Below are positions 53,781 through 64,000 of a stretch of 64,000 bases of DNA, piece by piece. Both the position numbers and the translations under genes were made by a program. Source of the stretch: a virus (taxonomy: Duplodnaviria; Caudoviricetes); IMG/VR virus record IMGVR_UViG_3300047564_001818; one strand, 5' to 3'. Positions within the stretch are counted from its first letter, which is position 1; each line of letters opens with the position of its first letter. The notes under the pieces are model-generated. The model searched no databases. It worked only from the letters and a program-made list of their open reading frames with translations, and had not been told where the DNA came from.

Positions 53781-54079
53781 TGGCACGCTACACCTACATA
53801 CACAGTGACCTGTGGAGTGAACGCAGCACAGTGCTGGAAGACGAATTGGCACAACTCACTGGGTACCTACACAGATCAGGATTGGACAGTGAGTTCGACC
53901 CAGACCTGCACAGTTATCGCACAGACACGGGTGACGTATGGCTGTTCCTTCCTGAGCTAACAGAACTGCAACTGTTTGCGATCACACTGATACTGAGCAG
54001 TAGCTCACTGGAGTTTGAGAACCGTCCTGTTCGTTTTGCACAGCCTCCAGAGATTGCACACGATGCGGAAGATCTATGA
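53780..54079 (+). CDS. hypothetical protein
   Basis: coupled ORF. Confidence 0.6.
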   Translation: MARYTYIHSDLWSERSTVLEDELAQLTGYLHRSGLDSEFDPDLHSYRTDTGDVWLFLPELTELQLFAITLILSSSSLEFENRPVRFAQPPEIAHDAEDL

Positions 54080-54347
54080 AATCGACAGTGTACAAGTATA
54101 CAGCCGCACTGGTGTATTCTCAAAACTGAGCCACAGAGCATATACACATAGACCACAACAACGGCCTTGGGATACCACACACCAAGAATGGATCAGTGCT
54201 GCTCTTACACCTGCACAACTGAGATTCATTGAACGGCAGGTTGTGACCTTTAGACCACATCCACGACACAGCCCCACAGTTGAACTGTTTATCTATGATG
54301 CTGATCTAACTGACAGAGACTGGTGTGTGATCAGACTGCTGTTCTAA
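54063..54347 (+). CDS. hypothetical protein
   Basis: MRKIYEIDSV start overlapping upstream gene. Confidence 0.55.
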   Translation: MRKIYEIDSVQVYSRTGVFSKLSHRAYTHRPQQRPWDTTHQEWISAALTPAQLRFIERQVVTFRPHPRHSPTVELFIYDADLTDRDWCVIRLLF

Positions 54348-54356
54348 AGACTGTGC

Positions 54357-54570
54357 ATAGGCCCCGCAAGCCGGATACCTATAGGCCCCGCTGTTAAGTG
54401 CTATACACAGCTATAATGATTACCAGCACACACTGAGTCAGTACTGCACAAGCTGTGATTAGATTATTTCTACGATCACTGTTCATACACATACTTATAG
54501 CATAGGCCCCGCTGTTAAGGTTTAAGCGCACAGCGCAATATGCGTAACTGTATAGGCCCCGCTGTTAAGG
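54357..54570 (+). repeat. direct repeats ATAGGCCCCGCTGTTAAG (3 full + 1 partial)
   Basis: copies at 54357 (partial), 54381, 54502, 54552. Confidence 0.9.
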
Positions 54571-54802
54571 TTACGGCTACGGGTCATGTTTGAGGTCAGT
54601 GAGCGCTAGCTGTGCAACACTGTGAACTAGATTGCGACATGCACCGCACTGTGGCACTGTGTTCAGCACACGAAAGATCAACTCAGACTGTGCAGACTGT
54701 AACTGAACAGCACAGTGTTGCACAGCACTCGCAGTGAGATTGTGACACACGCATACACGCATATGTGTATTTACTGTAGGGCGTAGTAAAAAAGATCTGC
54801 AA

Positions 54803-54852
54803 AAAGATGAAAAAGTATTTGAACTATAAAGATGAAAAAGTATTTGAACTAT
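54803..54852 (+). repeat. 25-bp tandem duplication
   Basis: AAAGATGAAAAAGTATTTGAACTAT x2. Confidence 0.9.
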
Positions 54853-55001
54853 GCCTGCCTCAACCTCGATCAATCTCTGCAAATTTGCACATAAACCGTT
54901 GAGAAGCTTGGCAAATCTGCACACTGAGCTCACGATGGGCCCGTCAAAACACCGGTTTTAGGGCTATAAAACACCCCTAGCGCCGCGTTAAAACCATTCG
55001 A

Positions 55002-55370
55002 TTTCAATGGTTTATACGATCTAGCTCATCCTAGATCTACACTGTGAGCACAGGCTCGATTCTGCCAGCAAGATCAATGACTTAGCATAAGAAGTTCAAC
55101 TGACCAATACACTATATACTTCAATGACTTAGTGGGCACAGTTCATTCAGAGGTCTCAGATTCGATTCTGCCAGCAAGATCAATCACTTAGCACACACAG
55201 TAGATACACAGCAAGATCAATGACTTAGCAGCTACACTAGGTTCTGGTGCTAAGTGATTGATACTATTGGCTTTCTCGCATCAATAGCTTACACAGTGAG
55301 GTTGAACCAATGGTGGTACTTGTAGTCGTTTGATATCGTTGAGCTCTTTGCTACTGATAAGTCATTGATA
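55002..55370. promoter_or_regulatory. cluster of IHF-consensus-like boxes (WATCAA-N4-TTR)
   Basis: plus: 55072, 55120, 55178, 55215; minus: 55251, 55358; further copies 55757 and 63023. Confidence 0.6.
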
Positions 55371-55469
55371 TTGCTGTGTTCTTTTGGTGTTGGTGGCGGG
55401 GCGACGGTGTCGTTGCGTGTCGTGCGAGGGGTGTAAGGCAAAGTTTACAGGTGCAGTGGGAGGGAGATA

Positions 55470-55612
55470 GTTTAACATTAAACCATTCCTGCGGGGTAGT
55501 TTAACGTTAAACCATTTTGGGCGAGATTGTTTAGTGTTAAACCATTTTGAGGGAGACTGTTTAGTGTTAAACTATACAACCTGCGGCCAAGACTGTTTAG
55601 TCATTAAACCAT
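55470..55612. repeat. five palindromic iteron-like repeats GTTTA-N4/5-TAAAC, ~30 bp period
   Basis: starts 55470, 55499, 55529, 55559, 55595; copy 2 is the perfect palindrome GTTTAACGTTAAAC. Confidence 0.85.
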
Positions 55613-55847
55613 AGGTTCAGGGCTCCGTGCCCTCCCGTCTACCGCTCCTGGCTATCGCCTTCTCGCTAACCTCACTTACAGTATAGCACCTGTGCAGGAG
55701 TTTGCAAGAGAATGTATTTCAATGTTTTCAAGGGGTTAGGAAATAAATTTATTTTGTAAGTCATTGATCTACAAGGAAAGTTTTTGGTTGTGCTCGTGTG
55801 TAGATGTGCTATTGTATACGAGTAGGGCAACACAAGAGGGAACGAAG

Positions 55848-56147
55848 ATGGGATACTTTCTTTACGATCGGCACAACACTCGCATAGTCAGCAAGGAGTA
55901 CAAGACTCATGCTGCGGCACAGGCAGAACTTACTCGTCGTCGTAAGGCTGCTGCGGGTGAATGGGGTGTGCTTCACGCAGAAGACGATCCGCTGTTCTTG
56001 TTGGGCATTGCAGAGAAAGAGTACTACTTCCGTCACATTGAGCGCTCTGTGACTCGTGTTAACTTGATGACGGGCGCGGAGTACCGTGAGAGCGTGAACA
56101 CGCCTTTGGCTTGCTCGCCTGCTTCAGAAACCTACTGGAGCCAGTGA
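55848..56147 (+). CDS. early hypothetical protein
   Basis: cassette gene; VNLMTG...CSPASETYWS. Confidence 0.8.
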   Translation: MGYFLYDRHNTRIVSKEYKTHAAAQAELTRRRKAAAGEWGVLHAEDDPLFLLGIAEKEYYFRHIERSVTRVNLMTGAEYRESVNTPLACSPASETYWSQ

Positions 56148-56219
56148 TTAGAGGTTGACAAGCCCTACTCCCTGTGCTATATATATGTGGAGTAGGGCAA
56201 CACAACAGAGGGCGACACA

Positions 56220-56375
56220 ATGAATCCAGAAATTGAGTCCATGCTGCAATTGACTGTTGAGCAATTGCTAAACGAGGATGGTGTAGGATGCGATCCTGCG
56301 GCTTTGGCTGCGGCACTGCGCGAGTTTGCGGAAATGATTGAAGCAGACATTGAGGCTGGCGCTTACGCAGAATAA
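56220..56375 (+). CDS. 51-aa acidic early protein
   Basis: own promoter/leader cassette. Confidence 0.7.
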   Translation: MNPEIESMLQLTVEQLLNEDGVGCDPAALAAALREFAEMIEADIEAGAYAE

Positions 56376-56437
56376 CTGTTGACACAGCCTTGCAGATGTG
56401 CTATAACTTACACATAGGGCAACAAGAGGGAACTGAG

Positions 56438-56629
56438 ATGGAAAATTTGGCATTCTACTCTAAGTATGACTTTGTCAAACTGCTTCGTCAGAAGCGCGGC
56501 AAAGACTATACCCTTGGCTGGTTGGAGATGGCATATGCTATGCCGCCCACCACTGAGGAGTATGAGCAGGAGATGATCCGCAAGGAGATTCCCGTTCTGC
56601 AGGCGCTGCCGGACTACGACGGCGTCTAA
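56438..56629 (+). CDS. early hypothetical protein
   Basis: cassette gene. Confidence 0.75.
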   Translation: MENLAFYSKYDFVKLLRQKRGKDYTLGWLEMAYAMPPTTEEYEQEMIRKEIPVLQALPDYDGV

Positions 56630-56700
56630 GGGGTTGACAAGCTTCAAGGCTTGTGCTATAACTAACATATAGAGCAACACAGTGTAGAGGGATACACACA

Positions 56701-57114
56701 ATGGGAACTCGTTCAACTATCGCAATTGAAAACGCAGACGGCACTGTCACTGGCATCTACTGCCACTGGGACGGCTACCTGAGCCACAATGGGCAAATCC
56801 TGCAAGACCACTATACTGACGAAGCCCGGGTGCGTGAGTTGATTGCTCTGGGCCACATCAGTTCGCTTGGTGCTGAGATTGGCACTGCCCATGACTTTGA
56901 TGCGGCTCCGCGTGGCGAGTGCAATGCCTACGGGCGTGATCGCGGCGAGCGTGATGTTGATGCTTATACTGAGCACAACTGGCGTCAGTACTGTGCTGAG
57001 CACGGACAGGAATACGACTACCTGTTCACTCCTGGGAAGGGCTGGCTGGTCCGCACCTACAACGGCATCTACGACCTTGCTCGTGCATTGGCAATCGAAA
57101 CCGAAGAAGCCTAA
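56701..57114 (+). CDS. early hypothetical protein (MGTRS...IYCHWDGY type)
   Basis: cassette gene. Confidence 0.85.
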   Translation: MGTRSTIAIENADGTVTGIYCHWDGYLSHNGQILQDHYTDEARVRELIALGHISSLGAEIGTAHDFDAAPRGECNAYGRDRGERDVDAYTEHNWRQYCAEHGQEYDYLFTPGKGWLVRTYNGIYDLARALAIETEEA

Positions 57115-57186
57115 GGCAGAAAGTGGTTGACACAGCCCTGCAGATGTGCTATTGTATATGAGTAGGGCAACACAAGAGGGACTGAG

Positions 57187-57426
57187 ATGTACAAGATCTA
57201 TGGCGACTATGGTTACACCAGCGAATGCCTGCTGCACACAGCCGACACTCGTTCAGAAGCCCTGCGCTGGGCAGACGACTATATCGCAGACGACTTTGGC
57301 GGCTATGCTGTGATTGAGGTTGCGGTTCACCTGAGCAATGGCGAATACAGCACCATCCATACCTACCGTGCAGAAGACTACGAGTACGAAGGCGATGACG
57401 ATTTTGCACTCTTGGAGGACTTTTAA
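57187..57426 (+). CDS. acidic early protein
   Basis: cassette gene. Confidence 0.75.
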   Translation: MYKIYGDYGYTSECLLHTADTRSEALRWADDYIADDFGGYAVIEVAVHLSNGEYSTIHTYRAEDYEYEGDDDFALLEDF

Positions 57427-57427
57427 G

Positions 57428-57583
57428 ATGCTCTACTATGTGATGTGGGGCGTTGAGATCATCGCTGTATGCACTCGACCAGAAGATGCTCATGCAATGG
57501 CTGGCTTTGATTACAAGACCAAAAAAACCTACACTGTGGTAGCGAAAATGGTTGACAACACTGTAGAAGGTGCTATTGTATAA
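57428..57583 (+). CDS. 51-aa early protein running through next promoter
   Basis: GGAGG RBS; ends MVDNTVEGAIV. Confidence 0.55.
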   Translation: MLYYVMWGVEIIAVCTRPEDAHAMAGFDYKTKKTYTVVAKMVDNTVEGAIV

Positions 57584-57620
57584 GAGTAGGGCAACGCAAT
57601 AGCAGAGAGGGACACACGCT

Positions 57621-58025
57621 ATGGCATACGTTTCGCAAGAAGACAAAGCTAAACTGACTCCGGCGATCAAGGCTGTGCTGGCTAAGTATGGCATGAAGGG
57701 CACGATTGCTGTGCGTCATCACAGCACTTTGGTAGTCACTGTCAAGAGCGGTGCTATCGACTTCGGCGGCGACAACATTGATGTGAACGAGTATTGGATC
57801 GACCAGCACTACGAGGGCAAGGCTCGTAAGTTCCTCAACGAACTGCACAAGGCTATGATGGGACCGGACTGGTTCTGCGAAGACGACGCGATGACTGACT
57901 ACTTCCACCGCAGCCACTACTGCTCCATCCGCATCGGCAACTGGGGTCGTCCGTATGTGTTCATGGGACGCAGCAAGGACGGTATGGTAAACGGTGTGGC
58001 AGAAGAAGCCTACACCTTTGCCTAA
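57621..58025 (+). CDS. early hypothetical protein (MAYVSQE type)
   Basis: cassette gene. Confidence 0.85.
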   Translation: MAYVSQEDKAKLTPAIKAVLAKYGMKGTIAVRHHSTLVVTVKSGAIDFGGDNIDVNEYWIDQHYEGKARKFLNELHKAMMGPDWFCEDDAMTDYFHRSHYCSIRIGNWGRPYVFMGRSKDGMVNGVAEEAYTFA

Positions 58026-58098
58026 ATAATGGTTGACAGCACACCACTGTCGTGCTATAACTAACACATAGGGCAACACTGCTAGAGGAGCACAGCAG

Positions 58099-58500
58099 AT
58101 GGCATACGGTGATTTTGTTACGTCAGTTGGCGAAACGGTTGGCATCGTGCGTCAGCACCGCCACGGCACAATCTTGATGAGCCGCTTTGGCACTGTTACC
58201 AAGATCAACGGACACGGCCACATCTACGTCCAAAGCGAAGACAAGGAGTATCGCTTCACTCGCCGCGGCTATGCCTACAAGGACGACTATGGTCCTGGCT
58301 TGATGCACGCCGCTAAACTGCGGATGATCCAAGAGAGTGAGACTCGTCGCAAGGAGCAGGTGCGGATTGCTCGTGCTATGGAGCAGGAACTCAAGGAAGG
58401 CTACTCCTACTCGGGCCGCTTCTTCCCCACCGCAGAGCGTATTGCTGCTCTAAAAAATCTGCTTGCAGACTTGGAGAAAGTGGTTGACAGCACGATATGA
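58099..58500 (+). CDS. early hypothetical protein
   Basis: cassette gene. Confidence 0.8.
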   Translation: MAYGDFVTSVGETVGIVRQHRHGTILMSRFGTVTKINGHGHIYVQSEDKEYRFTRRGYAYKDDYGPGLMHAAKLRMIQESETRRKEQVRIARAMEQELKEGYSYSGRFFPTAERIAALKNLLADLEKVVDSTI

Positions 58501-58542
58501 TCGTGCTATAACTATAGAGTAGACAGCAACAAGAGGGCAAAC

Positions 58543-58821
58543 ATGATGCTGAATGTGAATGACACTGTTCGTGCTTACAGCGGCCGGCCTGGCTGCATGT
58601 GCGGCTGCAATGGCACCTACAACGAAGGCGAGCGGGCTCGCAAGATGGCACTGACTGCGCTGCTGAAGAACCCTGCGGTGCGCTTGCAGACTTGGAAGCC
58701 CTCCGGCGGCGATGCTGGTTGCTTGTATGTGGAAACTGCAACTCGCAACCGTGTGCTGTATCTGACTGAAGAGGGTGCTGCGAAGTTGGCTGCACAGTTC
58801 CCTGAAATGGTTGACAAGTAA
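58543..58821 (+). CDS. early hypothetical protein (GCMCGC motif)
   Basis: cassette gene. Confidence 0.8.
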   Translation: MMLNVNDTVRAYSGRPGCMCGCNGTYNEGERARKMALTALLKNPAVRLQTWKPSGGDAGCLYVETATRNRVLYLTEEGAAKLAAQFPEMVDK

Positions 58822-58868
58822 GAACGTTCGTGCTATAACTTACACACAACGAGGCAATGGAGGGTAAC

Positions 58869-59420
58869 ATGCCGAACTGGTGCTCAAACTCAATCACTAT
58901 CACTGGTCCTGTGGAGAAGATTGCTGCGCTGTGGACCGAGGCTTCCACAGCCGGCGAACACAACGCTCTGCTCAATGCTCTGTGTCCGATGCCTAAGGAA
59001 CTCTTAGAAGGTGAAGCATGGTATGGCTGGCGTGTGGCCCACTGGGGAACCAAGTGGGACATTGACATGCAAGGTCTCGAGTTTGAAGAGTTCTCGGACG
59101 GCACGGCTGCCGTCACAGGTTGGGCAGACAGTGCATGGAGCCCGCCCGTTGATGCGTTCCAGGCTTATAGCAATGAGAATCCTGATGTGATGATGGAACT
59201 CAAATACTTCGAGCCCGGCATGGGGTTTGTAGGTGTATGGGACAACGAAGGTGGAGATGCCTATTGGGAAGGTGTTGACGAGTTGCTGGACACCACAGAG
59301 GAAGAAGACGCTGTGCTGCATGAACTGCTGGAATACTTTGACGTGGCCAGTTGGTTTGAGTCTGACGACGAGAACCTCGAGATTGATCTTGACGGCGGTG
59401 TGAGTGCGACGAACGAATAA
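58869..59420 (+). CDS. DUF1281/YubB-like ferredoxin-fold protein
   Basis: MPNWCSN, HWGTKWD, SAWSPP, YFEPGMGFVG. Confidence 0.75.
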   Translation: MPNWCSNSITITGPVEKIAALWTEASTAGEHNALLNALCPMPKELLEGEAWYGWRVAHWGTKWDIDMQGLEFEEFSDGTAAVTGWADSAWSPPVDAFQAYSNENPDVMMELKYFEPGMGFVGVWDNEGGDAYWEGVDELLDTTEEEDAVLHELLEYFDVASWFESDDENLEIDLDGGVSATNE

Positions 59421-59490
59421 TAATGGTTGACACGGCTCTACTCATGTGCTATTGTATATGAGTAGGGCAACGCTGCTAGAGGAGCACACG

Positions 59491-59775
59491 ATGGCACGTA
59501 AGACGATCGAAGTTGGCAAGGTTCTTAAGATTGCGAATAACTTCCTTGCTGCGAAGCATACCACTGCTGATGAGCGCGAGAGTGTGTGTGCTGTGATGGA
59601 AGCTATCTTGTTTGAGACTGATAACTATCGCGGCTTTGCTTACCTGCCCAAAGAGAACTACGCCCACGAGACGGGCTTTGATCACGATGGCACTCGTCGT
59701 CGTTACTTCGTCAGCGGCACTATCGATGCTGACTACGAAGCAGAAGACCGCAACATCAACAAGATCCGGGCATAA
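59491..59775 (+). CDS. early hypothetical protein
   Basis: cassette gene. Confidence 0.75.
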   Translation: MARKTIEVGKVLKIANNFLAAKHTTADERESVCAVMEAILFETDNYRGFAYLPKENYAHETGFDHDGTRRRYFVSGTIDADYEAEDRNINKIRA

Positions 59776-59785
59776 GGAGAACGAC

Positions 59786-59950
59786 ATGAACCCGTTGGCT
59801 TTTTTTGCGATGGTGGGCTTTGTTGTATTACTGATCGTCAGCACCGCAGCTTATACCTTTTCTAAATGCGGCTGGTATACTTTTGCACTGGGCAACGGTG
59901 CTGCGATGGCTGCCGTCACTGGCATGTGTGATAAAATTAATGGAGAATAG
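59786..59950 (+). CDS. small membrane protein, paralog 1
   Basis: MNPLAFFAMVGF...AYTFSKC...TGMCDKINGE. Confidence 0.75.
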   Translation: MNPLAFFAMVGFVVLLIVSTAAYTFSKCGWYTFALGNGAAMAAVTGMCDKINGE

Positions 59951-59951
59951 C

Positions 59952-60119
59952 ATGGACCCTTTGGCTTTTTTTGCAATGGTGGGCTTTGTACTGTTGTTGG
60001 GGATTGGCACCATAGCTTACACCTTTTCCAAATGCGACCAGTATGCCTTTGCACTGGGCAAGGCGGCGGGGGTGTCGGTGCTGATCACTGGCATGTGCGA
60101 TAAAATCAATGGAGAATAA
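59952..60119 (+). CDS. small membrane protein, paralog 2
   Basis: MDPLAFFAMVGF...AYTFSKC...TGMCDKINGE. Confidence 0.75.
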   Translation: MDPLAFFAMVGFVLLLGIGTIAYTFSKCDQYAFALGKAAGVSVLITGMCDKINGE

Positions 60120-60120
60120 C

Positions 60121-60234
60121 ATGGACTGGACCATCGAGGAATATCTTGAGTTTGAACGGCACTTGCTAGAACAAGCAGAAGCGGACGAAGACGAAATTCC
60201 GGTTGACGAACCTGTCTACTGGTGCTATAACTAA
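60121..60234 (+). CDS. 37-aa acidic peptide running through next promoter
   Basis: GGAG RBS; ends PVDEPVYWCYN. Confidence 0.5.
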   Translation: MDWTIEEYLEFERHLLEQAEADEDEIPVDEPVYWCYN

Positions 60235-60262
60235 CACATAGGGCAACACAAAGGACGCTGAG

Positions 60263-60544
60263 ATGAATAACTTCGCAACTGCTGTCACCGCAATCCAAAA
60301 GATGAACAACGACGAACTGAACGCTGTGGTTCGTGCGATCAAACTGCGCCGCACCTACCTTGCTCGTCAGAGTGCTAACACTTTCCAAGTTGGCGACCGT
60401 GTGAGCTTTGCTGCTCGCGGTATGCAGGTGCTGGGCACTGTAACCAAAGTCAACATCAAGACCATCCAAGTCAAGCAGGACAATGCCTACACCACGTGGA
60501 AGGTACACGCAAGTCTTTTGCATCCTGTCAAAGAAATGGCTTGA
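60263..60544 (+). CDS. early hypothetical protein with SH3/KOW-like domain
   Basis: FQVGDRVSF...GTVTKVNIKTIQV. Confidence 0.75.
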   Translation: MNNFATAVTAIQKMNNDELNAVVRAIKLRRTYLARQSANTFQVGDRVSFAARGMQVLGTVTKVNIKTIQVKQDNAYTTWKVHASLLHPVKEMA

Positions 60545-60597
60545 CAGGTTGCTGTATACGTGCTATAACTAACACATAGAAACACAAGAGGGACACG

Positions 60598-60786
60598 ATG
60601 AAAGATTACATGACACTGATCGCAATCATTGACCGGCTAGGCTATATTGCAGAACTTCCGTCAGCTAAGATCCGCCAAGCACTGGATCAATACATTGCTC
60701 AACTGGAAACAGAAGTTCGTCAAATTGATGAAGAGACGGAACGTCAATGTCGAATTGATGACATGTTCGAGAACGTGCCAGTGTAA
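60598..60786 (+). CDS. early hypothetical protein
   Basis: cassette gene. Confidence 0.7.
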   Translation: MKDYMTLIAIIDRLGYIAELPSAKIRQALDQYIAQLETEVRQIDEETERQCRIDDMFENVPV

Positions 60787-60795
60787 ATAGACAAC

Positions 60796-60871
60796 GCCCG
60801 GTTAGCCCAAAGGTAGAGGCAACAGACTTAAAATCTGTCAAGCGTCGGTTCGACCCCGACACTGGGTACCA
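60796..60871 (+). tRNA. tRNA-Leu(UAA), short variable loop
   Basis: cloverleaf, ACAGA-CTTAAAA-TCTGT, TTCG loop, encoded CCA. Confidence 0.88.
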
Positions 60872-60876
60872 AACAT

Positions 60877-60953
60877 GGGGGATTAGCTCAATTGGTTAGA
60901 GCGACGGTCTCATAAACCGCAGGTTATCGGTTCAAGTCCGGTATCCCCTACCA
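60877..60953 (+). tRNA. tRNA with CAU anticodon (elongator Met or Ile2)
   Basis: cloverleaf, CTCATAA loop, paired 1:72, encoded CCA. Confidence 0.88.
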
Positions 60954-60959
60954 AATATT

Positions 60960-61036
<77 letters not shown>

Positions 61037-61039
61037 AGT

Positions 61040-61097
61040 TAGCAGGAGTTGAGATTGCGCTGTGTTGCCCTATGCTGCGTTGGATCTCCTCCTGCTA
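61040..61097 (+). ncRNA. hairpin RNA with loop antisense to early-gene leader
   Basis: TAGCAGGAG/CTCCTGCTA + GAGAT/ATCTC + GCGC/GCGT stems; loop TGTGTTGCCCTATG. Confidence 0.7.
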
Positions 61098-61127
61098 CGC
61101 TGATAGAGTTTAACCAAGGAGAACACC

Positions 61128-61307
61128 ATGGCTATCTGTCCTAACTGTCATACACCAGACAAGAACTTCTTTGCGCCTGCTTGCCATGCTTGCAACGAAC
61201 AGATTCCTTTGATCCAGCAGATCATTGTTAGCTTGATCTTCTTGTCAGTCAAGGCAGTGTTTGTGATTGCGATGTTGTGGTTCCTTTTTGTTTATCTTCC
61301 AGGTTGA
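61128..61307 (+). CDS. 59-aa CxxC..CxxC zinc-ribbon + TM protein
   Basis: AAGGAG RBS; CPNC...CHAC; hydrophobic C-terminus. Confidence 0.7.
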   Translation: MAICPNCHTPDKNFFAPACHACNEQIPLIQQIIVSLIFLSVKAVFVIAMLWFLFVYLPG

Positions 61308-61358
61308 CAACTGCTGCGTAGAGTGTATACTGAACAAGTAATGAGCAAAGGGCACAAC

Positions 61359-62360
61359 ATGACTAACGTTACAATCATTGACGGCACGTACAAGATCCGC
61401 GGCGCTGACACTTCAGTAGCTGGTCTGACCTTTCCGTTGGTAGAACCGTTCCGTATGGGCAAGACTGGCGGCTATGTCACTGTGGATGGTTCAGCTGTGA
61501 ATGGCTTTCCGGCTCGCAACATCAAGATCCGTGTGAACAGTGAGCAGGACTACGAACTGCTAGAAGGCCCCGCTGTATACAACTCTAGAACAGAAACTGA
61601 TGCGGAGATTGTTGAGCGCATCCGTAGTCGCTTTGCTATGCTGGGCGAGATGACCAAGGCTGTGAAGAAGGGCGATGTACGTGCTATGATCGTATCAGGT
61701 CCTCCGGGTGTTGGCAAGAGCCACGGTGTTGAAGAAGTATTGGATCGATACAAGATGATGGAGACCATGGGCGGCAAGAAGACACACGAAGTGATCAAAG
61801 GCGCTATGAGCCCGATCGGACTGTACTGCAAGCTGTTCAAGATGAGCGAAGCTGGAAATGTGGTTGTGTTCGATGACTGTGACAGCATCTTCCAGGAAGA
61901 CCTAAGCTTGAACATCCTCAAAGCTGCACTAGACAGCAAGCAGAATCGTTGGATCCACTGGAACACTGACAGCTTCAAACTGCGCAACGAAGGTGTGCCT
62001 GACAAGTTCAAGTTTGAAGCTAGTGCAATCTTTATCACCAACTTGAAGTTCGACAAGGTCAAAGGCAAGCTTAGAGAACACCTAGAAGCATTGGAGTCAC
62101 GCTGCCACTACATGGATCTAACGATCGATACCGAACGTGATAAGATGCTGCGCATCCGGCAAGTGATTGAAGATGGTATGCTGGATGTGTACACACTGAG
62201 CGATGACATCAAAGAAGACATCATCGACTTCGTGGACATCAACAAGAGCCGACTGCGTGAACTGAGTCTGCGCAGTGTGCTCAAGGTAGCAGACCTGGCA
62301 GTAAGCTTTCCAGACCGCTGGCAGGACTTTGCTGAGAATACGGTGATGCGTCGAGCCTAG
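61359..62360 (+). CDS. AAA+ ATPase
   Basis: GPPGVGKS Walker A, VVFDDCD Walker B, FITN, SRC. Confidence 0.9.
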   Translation: MTNVTIIDGTYKIRGADTSVAGLTFPLVEPFRMGKTGGYVTVDGSAVNGFPARNIKIRVNSEQDYELLEGPAVYNSRTETDAEIVERIRSRFAMLGEMTKAVKKGDVRAMIVSGPPGVGKSHGVEEVLDRYKMMETMGGKKTHEVIKGAMSPIGLYCKLFKMSEAGNVVVFDDCDSIFQEDLSLNILKAALDSKQNRWIHWNTDSFKLRNEGVPDKFKFEASAIFITNLKFDKVKGKLREHLEALESRCHYMDLTIDTERDKMLRIRQVIEDGMLDVYTLSDDIKEDIIDFVDINKSRLRELSLRSVLKVADLAVSFPDRWQDFAENTVMRRA

Positions 62361-62375
62361 CTCCGCATGCCGTTG

Positions 62376-62550
62376 GGACAATGGACCGCCCTCGTCCATT
62401 GTCCACATGTGGACTGAGTGTGCCCTCGCTCAGTTCACGAAGGCCGAAGCAGCCGATAAGAGCTGTTCGGTAAGGCTGGTAGACGAGCCCTCACGCTCTG
62501 CCAGAACAGCCCGGAGTTGGCGTGCCCTCTGCCGCTCCGGGCTATTTTTT
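62376..62550 (+). ncRNA. four-hairpin RNA, each loop carrying GCCCUC, last hairpin an intrinsic terminator
   Basis: stems 62376-62404, 62411-62436, 62476-62504, 62508-62543 + T-run. Confidence 0.75.
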
Positions 62551-62614
62551 TGGTTGACAAGCCGTGCAGAAGGTGCTATTGTTAACACATAGGGCAACAC
62601 GGAAGGGCAAGAAG

Positions 62615-63025
62615 ATGTACACCTTTGATGAACAGATTGTATCCGATCTCCACAAAGACGCTCGTGGCTACCGCCCAGATGCATACTTTTGGGAAGAGTG
62701 GAGCCAAACCGGCGACGACACTCGCCAAGCTATGTGGGACAACCTGCTGCAGGAACTGGCCGCTGAGACAGCACGTCAACAGGACGCCTATGCTCGTGCA
62801 GAGATTGAGTTCCATCAGCGTGTGCAAGGCATGATGCTCTCAGGTGCCAAGGACGAACTGACTGCTATCCGTTGGATCCTCGAAGCCGAACAGTTCACCG
62901 AGAACGATTGGGCTTACGGTTCGGACTATGTGGCTTTCCACTTCAACTTGCCCTACAAAGGCCTATTTGATCAGCAGATCCAGACTGTCCTCAACGAGAT
63001 GGAGACCCAGGCTGACCTTGGCTAA
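62615..63025 (+). CDS. early hypothetical protein
   Basis: cassette gene; MYTFDEQIVSDLHKDARGYRP. Confidence 0.85.
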   Translation: MYTFDEQIVSDLHKDARGYRPDAYFWEEWSQTGDDTRQAMWDNLLQELAAETARQQDAYARAEIEFHQRVQGMMLSGAKDELTAIRWILEAEQFTENDWAYGSDYVAFHFNLPYKGLFDQQIQTVLNEMETQADLG

Positions 63026-63154
63026 GTTATTGATAACATTGACAAAAACTTTTTTGTAAGTGCTTGTTTTCTAACAAAACATTTCTCTTGCAATGTGCGC
63101 TGTATAGTGTATAACTGTATTTGTAAGCAACACAGCATATGCGAGGAGCACAAT

Positions 63155-63433
63155 ATGCAAAACACTGTAGCAAATACTAATTACGTTTTTGTAATGCTTG
63201 ATGACGCTACAAACGCAATTGTACTGCGTATTAATAAAACTGTTGACGTTTTTTGCAATAGTGCAAACGACATAATTGCTGCATTTAAACAATATAATAT
63301 TACGGACTGCGACACTATTATGGCGAGCAGCGACGTGGATTTTGCTACGGAGTTTGACTATGCGTACGACAGTGCAGTACACGACATGCTTGACGAAGCT
63401 TTTGACGCACTAAATTTTAAACAATACGTTTAA
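63155..63433 (+). CDS. early protein with no Pro/Gly/Trp (YC-free DNA)
   Basis: GAGGAG RBS, own promoter. Confidence 0.7.
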   Translation: MQNTVANTNYVFVMLDDATNAIVLRINKTVDVFCNSANDIIAAFKQYNITDCDTIMASSDVDFATEFDYAYDSAVHDMLDEAFDALNFKQYV

Positions 63434-63522
63434 AAAAACAGCAGCACACAGCACTTTTTACTTGACAAGTGCTGTGTGCTGTGCTATAAGTTACACATAG
63501 GGCAACACAAGAGGGACTGCAC

Positions 63523-63714
63523 ATGACACGCGAAGAACTGTTTGCTAATATTGCACAAATTGCTGCTGACGCATACGACAACACAGATGCTGACGAAGTG
63601 CAAAGCTGGGATGCATACGAAGCAGCAAAGCAGATTGTTGCTGCAATGCAAGCGTTTGGCTACGACATTGCAGACATGTTGGAGCAAATAGAGGAAGACG
63701 CAGACGAAGCGTAA
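63523..63714 (+). CDS. acidic early protein (YC-free DNA)
   Basis: cassette gene. Confidence 0.75.
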   Translation: MTREELFANIAQIAADAYDNTDADEVQSWDAYEAAKQIVAAMQAFGYDIADMLEQIEEDADEA

Positions 63715-63814
63715 CACAAAAAAAACAGCAGCGCACAGCAACTTAGGGGTTGACAGTTGCTGTGTGCTGTGCTATTGTTAACACATAGGGCAACACAACA
63801 CAAGAGGGACCTCA

Positions 63815-64000
63815 AGATGAATACCACAAAGCGCAACGCTCAGTTCGAAGCAGCCTTTGATCGAGTGATCGAAGCCCAGCTGTTGATGGAAGGTATTGCT
63901 GTTCTCACTGCTGACAGCCACGCAATGGACATTCAGGCACGCCTGCAGAAGATTGTCAAAGAGATGTGGCAGTTCAAAGGCAACGTTGCTCAAGGACGCA
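63815..64000 (+). CDS. early hypothetical protein, truncated by window end
   Basis: cassette leader then MNTTKRNAQF..., open to end. Confidence 0.65.

Follow-up and report, generated by a model that had tools for sequence, protein, structure and literature searches.

A conserved GCCCU-loop RNA in the 3' trailer of a phage tRNA operon is complementary to the leaders of early genes and may pair with them in trans

The c4 antisense RNA of phages P1 and P7 is a phage-encoded, processed and stable hairpin whose loops pair in trans at or upstream of the ribosome-binding site and thereby silence phage genes; it is matured by RNase P and has a single operon, icd-ant of a temperate phage, under its control. 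The cellular sRNA GcvB, which is free-standing and depends on Hfq, uses a linear seed to bind C/A-rich elements upstream of the ribosome-binding site. In E. coli, the 3' external transcribed spacer of a tRNA gives 3'ETS-leuZ, a base-pairing RNA of 53 nt (Lalaouna et al. 2015, cited from PMC8166272). The cuckoo RNAs (CcsR1-4) of Alphaproteobacteria are tandem hairpins with C-rich anti-Shine-Dalgarno loops, which are cut from an mRNA 3'UTR by RNase E (PMC8034643). In phage T4, the endoribonuclease RegB inactivates many early mRNAs via GGAG in the ribosome-binding site, with late mRNAs escaping; the T4 tRNA region also gives rise to two small stable RNAs, RNAC and RNAD, whose role is unexplained, and a review of 2010 recorded no trans-acting regulatory RNA as characterised in T4 (PMC3014915).

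Here we describe a hairpin at the end of a tRNA cluster in a 64,000-nt stretch of viral DNA (the window, by which the whole stretch is meant). It comes from an uncultured T4-like jumbo phage, a relative of which sits on a 275-kb contig, and the window also has ribonucleotide reductase and collagen-like fibre genes. The hairpin is a member of none of the compared families by sequence or model. An earlier reading of this DNA from its letters alone (the sequence-only reading) had named no described phage system with this architecture, which is, however, comparable in kind to P1 c4, 3'ETS-leuZ and the cuckoo/CcsR anti-Shine-Dalgarno loops. Among phage RNAs, the P1/P7 c4 RNA is the closest analogue, although the hairpin belongs to a phage of the T4-like lytic type, would have many unlinked targets and lies 3' of a tRNA; neither the hairpin nor the multi-hairpin array described below matched the Rfam C4 family in a cmscan of 54000-64000. 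With GcvB, the hairpin would share a G/U-rich seed (here UGUGUUG) facing a C/A-rich leader (CAACACA) upstream of the ribosome-binding site in many mRNAs, whereas the seed would here lie in a hairpin loop and the target would be the very 5' end of the mRNA. By origin, the closest analogue is 3'ETS-leuZ, which PMC8166272 presents as a stable trailer of about 50-60 nt with a hairpin behind the last tRNA of an operon, a stability and size that the phage RNA would be expected to have as well. 3'ETS-leuZ needs Hfq, sponges two sRNAs (RyhB and RybB) and ends at an intrinsic terminator (PMC8166272), whereas the RNA here would pair with about a dozen phage mRNAs, at their 5' ends, and the window's hairpin is without a T-run. 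By the logic of the loop, the cuckoo/CcsR RNAs are the closest, as their tandem loops parallel the array of GCCCUC loops behind the ATPase gene of the phage and the loop that this array has in common with the trailer hairpin (PMC8034643). They differ in their motif (CCUCCUCCC, as against GCCCU(C) here, where no Rfam match was found) and in being cellular stress RNAs tied to DUF1127 proteins, with neither a link to tRNAs nor a private viral early tag (PMC8034643). By biological logic, T4 RegB is the closest analogue, since it, too, relies on a private early tag, as the proposed action of the hairpin would, but RegB is a protein nuclease.

The interrupted hairpin that had been placed behind the CCA of tRNA-Arg is real, with all of its coordinates correct, and its fold is strong: the segment 61037-61100 has a minimum free energy of -28.7 kcal/mol (z = -4.3), and none of 200 shuffled sequences was equally stable. 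It begins 4 nt past the encoded CCA of tRNA-Arg on the same strand, and its basal stem of 9 bp (61040-61048 with 61089-61097) is followed by a 2-nt UU bulge, a 6-bp stem, a 4-bp stem and a second, weak 4-bp stem, including two G.U pairs, which closes the hexaloop UGCCCU (61066-61071). The GCCCU that is invariant in the family lies at 61067-61071 within the apical segment. The hairpin is the sole match of the covariance model in the window (Table 1). No T-run follows position 61097, where the sequence is CGCUGAUAGAG, and a terminator scan of 60400-62700 was negative. Rfam cmscan of 54000-64000 at E <= 1 returned three tRNAs and chance-level matches, none of them at 61037-61100 or 62345-62551; the exact stem-loop pattern had no match in IMG/VR, and a literature search on the motif found nothing relevant. 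In freshwater samples (X1-X4), the phage was present at >90% of words. The region was compared with contigs from four sequencing runs, three of DNA and one of RNA, and two of the DNA contigs span the hairpin, with differences of 7/664 and 3/373. The RNA-run contigs cover tRNA-Leu, the 59-aa ORF and the ATPase gene and not the hairpin, which, in one metatranscriptome of assembled contigs, is evidence neither for nor against it.

Table 1. Positions of the features discussed; a handle (L number) before a position marks a related locus, and all other positions are in the window.
Feature	Position	Strand	Basis
Repeat family 1, three copies of about 37 nt, end AGCAAGATCAATGACTTAGCA	55051-55230		
Repeat family 2, at least three tandem 30-nt units around GTTTAACNTTAAACCATT	55462-55610		
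Span of the 11 TAGGGCAAC leaders	55823-63794	+	
TAGGGCAAC leader starts	55823, 56193, 56415, 57163, 57587, 58069, 59463, 60239, 62590, 63498, 63786	+	
Promoter spacers antisense to their own leader or binding site, examples	56164-56200; L039:667-715; L033:3568-3615; L012:8313-8360		
Early sigma70-type promoter, TTGACA, 17 nt, extended -10 TGcTATAAC	60541-60569	+	read from sequence
GTAAATA box over the stop codon of ORF 60598-60786	60783-60789	+	
tRNA-Leu(UAA), tRNA-Met(CAU) and tRNA-Arg(UCU), CCA encoded	60796-61036	+	ARAGORN and Rfam
tRNA 3'-trailer hairpin, member of the GCCCU-loop family	61040-61097	+	covariance model: 56 bits, E 8e-12
Conserved GUUGAG feature of the hairpin	61048-61053		
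Apical 14 nt UGUGUUGCCCUAUG, exact antisense of leader CAUAGGGCAACACA	61061-61074	+	
59-aa Cys-rich/membrane ORF with canonical AAGGAG site	61128-61307	+	
AAA ATPase gene	61323-62360		
Multi-hairpin RNA in the ATPase 3'UTR, four GCCCUC apical loops	62345-62551	+	z = -6.3
GCCCUC loops of the array	62388, 62422, 62487, 62524	+	
Hairpin polymorphism, absent	L119:2225-2510, L120:1168-1450, L123:912-1195		
Hairpin polymorphism, present	L121:555-910		
Leader/own-antisense hairpin in AACAGTTAG lineages	L032:9067-9135, L018:644-700, L005:8454-8520		
Intra-cluster element of about 100 nt with core GGGACTATTAATAGAYTTGCCC	L004:8157-8261, L048:3558-3657, L073:3581-3685		

The promoter at 60541 serves an operon that consists of the ORF 60598-60786, the three tRNAs and the hairpin, and its own leader is a degenerate CATAGAAACACA without the GGGC core. 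The proposal that the hairpin may be expressed late, which had been drawn from the GTAAATA box before tRNA-Leu, found no support: the operon is driven by this early-type promoter, and the box overlaps a stop codon and belongs to a motif that is not enriched, TAAATA occurring on the + strand of 55-64 kb in 2 copies only, which is about the chance rate. The box is similar to the late boxes of the window (xTAAATA upstream of the minus-strand structural genes), and boxes like it also precede the tRNA clusters of some relatives. Since the hairpin is co-transcribed from an early-type promoter, there is no obvious timing switch. In the window's lineage, the 59-aa ORF comes after the hairpin with no canonical promoter between the two. 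PHROGs and Pfam searches gave no function for the small ORFs beside the hairpin. In blastn against a phage collection, only the tRNAs were matched, and the trailer hairpin, the ATPase gene and the array had no DNA similarity; tblastn of the ATPase in isolate phages reached at most 43% identity, and no cultured relative was found.

Relatives were collected with the ATPase gene as bait, giving 32 viral and 80 metagenomic loci at 45-81% identity, to which closer ones (84-98%) were added; the clade is spread over marine, estuarine and freshwater metagenomes, a single scan having returned 471 related loci, and ATPase homologues number in the thousands. According to the covariance model, about 25 lineages have a hairpin of the same architecture after the final tRNA of their cluster, usually 1-6 nt from the CCA and about 20 nt from it in L036, L057 and L106, and this placement is kept whether the last tRNA is Arg or Leu. 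A T-run directly follows the hairpin in 7/25 lineages, and the next promoter is 8-26 nt downstream in 17/25. Covariation was scored on a trimmed alignment of 17 lineages with explicit structure, RNAalifold having returned no structure from the untrimmed first alignment, in which two divergent groups were misaligned. In the trimmed alignment, 89% of the cells are paired, and the stem covariation is strong, with compensatory changes in 15 of the 19 pairs, a level that none of 500 shuffles and none of the slid registers came near. Furthermore, a U.G pair beside the loop is kept in 11/17 sequences, indicating that the conserved element is an RNA of the + (early-transcript) strand and not a DNA cruciform. 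The GCCCU is invariant in 22 aligned hairpins while the stems vary, and the base after it is C in every lineage but that of the window, which has A. By an energy-based test, 310/507 occurrences of GCCCT[CA] on the + strand are apical in a stable local hairpin, being part of its loop, versus 20/778 on the - strand; a cruder 5-bp loop test gave no strand separation. Taken together, the hairpin represents a genuine conserved and covarying RNA family of an uncultured aquatic clade of T4-like jumbo phages, and the safest statement is that it forms the 3'-trailer of the tRNA operon of the phage and belongs to a new family of GCCCU-loop RNAs.

The trailer hairpin is a solitary copy of a loop module that recurs after the ATPase gene, and the two are sister elements. 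The array has a 5' end that overlaps the ATPase stop codon, and its last hairpin is a terminator with a T7 run. In nearly all relatives, 3-6 consecutive hairpins with unrelated stems follow the ATPase stop codon, with the loop sequences GUGCCCUCG, CCGCCCUCA or AGCCCUCAC.

The early genes are on the + strand at 55.8-64 kb, and the late structural genes are on the - strand at 3.6-48.7 kb, behind T4-late-type xTAAATA boxes. Their ribosome-binding sites fall into two classes, GAGGG(A/C) for early genes and AAGGA/AGGAG-type for late genes, a GAGGG site being present in 1/30 late genes. There are 11 copies of the motif TAGGGCAAC on the + strand and one on the - strand (61064-61072) against a chance expectation of 0.48, and the longer CATAGGGCAACACA is exact at 60237, 63496 and 63784 (+) and at 61061-61074 (-), with one mismatch at 58067 and 62588, against a chance expectation of 0.04. 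Thus, the claim that the loop is the exact 14-nt reverse complement of CATAGGGCAACACA, with a 9-nt core matching 11 leaders, was borne out at every position listed for it. Each leader copy stands behind a near-consensus promoter (TTGACA, 17 nt, TGnTATAAC or TATTGT), with the motif starting 7-8 nt past the -10 hexamer, at about +2 to +10 of the cassette, and about 13 nt before a GAGGG-type ribosome-binding site. This promoter geometry suggests that the transcript starts at or 1-2 nt before the motif, so that the target would be the very beginning of the mRNA, with the first C of the 14-mer probably missing from the transcript.

In most lineages, the early ribosome-binding site reads (A)GAGGGCA(AAC) and the loops can pair with it over 6-7 nt, the pairing of the loop with the AGGGCA site in relatives being predicted at -7 to -9 kcal/mol after opening costs. 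The lineages with the TAGGGCAAC leader (the window, L010, L033, L036/L039 and L113-L118) have GAGGGA or GAGGAG sites, and the loop core can there pair with AGGGCA at +3 to +8 of the leader; the early sites of the window are mostly GAGGGA, and the match of its loop, GCCCUA, is to the leader, upstream of the site. Sequence comparison thus suggests that a tag of about xAGGGCAA(A)C, once at the binding site, was shifted to the leader, with the loops left unchanged. It is unlikely that two independently conserved motifs would be exact complements by chance, for which our rough estimate is about 1e-3. An occurrence of UGCCCU/AGGGCA in the tRNA-Arg acceptor stem of some relatives was judged to be a coincidence; it is absent in the window's lineage.

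The complementarity is longest in the window, in which the apical part of the hairpin is unlike that of all other lineages and could form 13-14 contiguous pairs with all 11 leaders. The predicted pairing of the loop with all 11 leaders ranges from -12 to -19.5 kcal/mol, versus an average of -1 for late 5' regions, with an opening cost of 3.6 kcal/mol for the loop and 0.3-3.4 for the leader. These values are the sum of duplex and opening energies; RNAcofold, which gave weak values, cannot place intermolecular pairs inside a closed loop. For 161 distinct GCCCU loops, the longest perfect complement to early UTRs of the same locus is typically 7-8 nt, with a tail of 9 nt in 10 loops, 10 in 4, 11 in 1, 12 in 1 (L010) and 14 in 1 (the window). 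The 12-nt case is a different hairpin, the first of the L010 array, whose loop of 15 nt is the complement of the leader variant peculiar to L010, AGGGCAAACAAG, of which the L010 leaders hold three exact and three one-mismatch copies and the window's leaders no exact copy. By our own post hoc estimate, about 160 loops with a fixed core of 5-6 nt would yield a 14-nt match by chance with a probability of roughly 0.01-0.04, which is suggestive and not decisive.

The match is not conserved together with the leader. L113 and L114, whose ATPases are 91% and 88% identical, share the window's arrangement of tRNAs, hairpin and 59-aa ORF and have at least 12 TAGGGCAAC leaders, and their loop is AGUAUGCCCUCAAUG, in which only 6 nt are complementary. 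The regulon is also kept in L118 (84%), L033 and L036/L039, which have the generic GCCCUC loop with 6 complementary nucleotides, and L116 (86%) and L010 are without the tRNA-trailer hairpin though the leader regulon is present. Of the joint conservation of loop and leader that the sequence-only reading had foreseen, therefore, what stands is the GCCCU core, which is complementary to the early tag clade-wide; the 14-nt match is lost where the leader is kept, an outcome that this reading had itself named as refuting its proposal. Among siblings with 97-98% ATPase identity, the hairpin is missing from L119, L120 and L123 through a clean indel, about 70 nt long and with AGTT / GTT microhomology at its borders, where the sequence reads tRNA-Arg CCA, two bases, TTTAAC and the ribosome-binding site. 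In L121/L122 the hairpin is present as UGUGUUGCCCUAUA, with a 13/14 match, and both of its substitutions change a wobble pair to a Watson-Crick pair. Selection on the fold is thus visible, and the 14-nt complement appears, from this comparison, to be a recent strain-level state of the window strain and one sibling. The clean loss in such close siblings indicates that the hairpin is no essential master switch and that its effect on fitness is small or redundant. The proposal of a single sRNA that shuts off the early regulon is plausible and partly supported, in that there is a structured RNA of the mRNA strand with predicted pairing to 11 leaders; against it, the hairpin is dispensable and the 14-nt match is not conserved.

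Our best reading, which we hold tentatively and at somewhat less than an even chance, is that the hairpin is an accessory tRNA 3'-trailer RNA that pairs in trans with early leaders. The hairpin would be the 3' external transcribed spacer of an early tRNA operon and would persist as a stable RNA of about 60 nt; as it starts a few nucleotides past the CCA of the last tRNA, ordinary tRNA 3' processing may be expected to release it. Its GCCCU loop would read the AGGGC(A) tag of early 5'UTRs, which is the ribosome-binding site GAGGGCA in most lineages and would be the 5'-terminal leader UAGGGCAAC in the window's lineage, and in the window strain and one sibling the diverged apical part would pair over 13-14 nt with the start of at least 11 early mRNAs. 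By binding the C/A-rich 5' leader by the ribosome-binding site, the RNA could lower translation and/or change the stability of early messages; the simplest effect would be to hinder 30S loading, and a change in 5'-end-dependent decay is also possible. A helix of 13-14 bp in a closed loop would be topologically strained, and it is feasible only by virtue of the free 5' end that the target offers. The trailer RNA and the four-loop RNA behind the ATPase gene might be redundant in their action, and the degenerate leader at 60541 could spare the hairpin's own operon from pairing with itself.

Three other explanations have to be weighed against trans pairing. As the main rival, the hairpin may instead be structural, marking or protecting the 3' end of the tRNA operon as a terminator, exonuclease block or processing signal, with a phage or host RNA-binding protein reading GCCCU, the arrays serving as protein sponges and the leader match being incidental. 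Its strict placement at the cluster's 3' end, irrespective of which tRNA comes last, would be explained in this way, as would the T-run and the nearby promoter in the lineages counted above, the tolerated loss of the hairpin in sibling strains, the array's last hairpin being a true terminator with the same loop, and the arrays themselves, since several hairpins with one loop are typical of protein-sequestering RNAs. The hairpin of the window, however, has no T-run, with no terminator called around it, and GCCCUC does not keep a constant register to the closing pair (hexaloop UGCCCU versus 7-9 nt loops such as CCGCCCUCA), as would be expected of a linear read-out more than of a fixed loop fold. 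A protein-binding loop would also leave unexplained the exact complementarity of two independently conserved motifs, the lineage-specific extensions to 14 and 12 nt and the enrichment of GCCCT in the spacers of AGGGC-leader promoters (see below), and we regard it as possible but rather unlikely. It is more improbable still that the 14-nt match is a coincidence, in which the family loop supplies UGCCCU, eight flanking nucleotides of a free-to-vary inner stem match the leader by chance and the hairpin has a generic function only. The restriction of the match to the window strain and one sibling, with the closest leader-bearing relatives lacking it, the continuous tail of match lengths and a G-to-A change in L121 that reduces the complementarity yet improves the stem are all in keeping with chance; against it are the small number of such matches expected by our own estimate given above, the retention of 13/14 nt in a sibling that differs elsewhere in the hairpin and the independent 12-nt case of L010, which fits that lineage's own leader variant.

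The remaining explanation places the signal in the DNA, with TAGGGCAAC as an operator for a phage DNA-binding regulator (in both orientations) or the apical segment as a weak internal sigma70 promoter for the 59-aa ORF. A promoter scan does call TTGAGA-16-TATGCT at 61049-61076 (9/12 matches), for which the sibling has a better -10 (TATACT), and this would supply the promoter that is otherwise missing before the ORF; moreover, the leader inverted repeats that flank the -10 of many promoters could be palindromic operators. The GUUGAG, however, is found family-wide, including in lineages without a -10-like element after it; L113/L114 have the same hairpin-then-ORF layout and no promoter-like -10; the candidate is without the TG extension and the downstream leader found in every real cassette; and the strand-specific covariation, which includes G.U pairs, indicates RNA. 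We therefore give a DNA-level signal very little weight. The notion that the apical part is a decayed promoter with an anti-leader in its spacer was dropped, as GUUGAG is a feature of the hairpin family.

The antisense of the tag also appears in promoters. GCCCT is present between the -35 and -10 elements of 21/130 AGGGC-leader promoters versus 5/377 others (odds ratio 14, p = 2e-9) and is the commonest spacer pentamer of the former, and spacer-to-leader inverted repeats of at least 9 nt are about nine times over-represented. Many early promoters hold in their spacer the antisense of their own leader or ribosome-binding site, as inverted repeats of 8-12 nt around the -10, an example from the window being GCCCTACTCC / GGAGTAGGGC. 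Such repeats could form a hairpin in read-through transcripts or be a palindromic operator, and the sequences suggest that GCCCU-AGGGC pairing is used in cis too, which counts in favour of a function by pairing. A bolder extension of trans pairing, which we consider doubtful, is that the whole early gene set of the clade would be under RNA control, with the GCCCU hairpins of the tRNA trailer, the ATPase 3'UTR and the promoter spacers as diffusible or cis partners of the AGGGC tag, in an RNA counterpart of RegB shut-off; the trailer copy of the window strain would then have exchanged the ribosome-binding site for the 5'-terminal leader as its target, with a duplex of 13-14 nt and at least 11 messages.

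Should the pairing prove real, it would mean that T4-like phages, too, have a regulatory RNA, by which a virus would tag its early messages privately and read the tag by multi-copy loops made from by-products of tRNA and mRNA processing, and it would offer a function for phage tRNA-region RNAs, a question open since T4 RNAC and RNAD. The presence/absence polymorphism and the single retargeted loop represent a natural experiment on the evolution of a regulator. If the pairing is not real, a new and well-supported structured RNA family remains.

Several minor features of the region were also observed. Where the leader is AACAGTTAG, a short hairpin made of the leader and its own antisense (AACAGT...ACTGTT) comes after one of the promoters near the tRNAs, with no ORF next to it, and may represent a small RNA. 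Among relatives, the tRNA cluster is in flux: both the orders Leu-Met-Arg and Met-Arg-Leu occur, an HNH-like endonuclease ORF (weak Pfam HNH match, E = 1e-3) lies between tRNA-Met and tRNA-Arg at L033:915-1385, and truncated 5' halves of tRNAs stand between intact ones at L010:9244-9336, L036:610-650 (L036/L039) and L118:5270-5310. Some relatives have a second conserved element, about 100 nt long, within the cluster, with the common core GGGACTATTAATAGAYTTGCCC, which is absent from the window. Just before the early island of the window, the ORF-poor segment 54950-55700 holds two repeat families, which are iteron-like and may mark an origin or a regulatory region.
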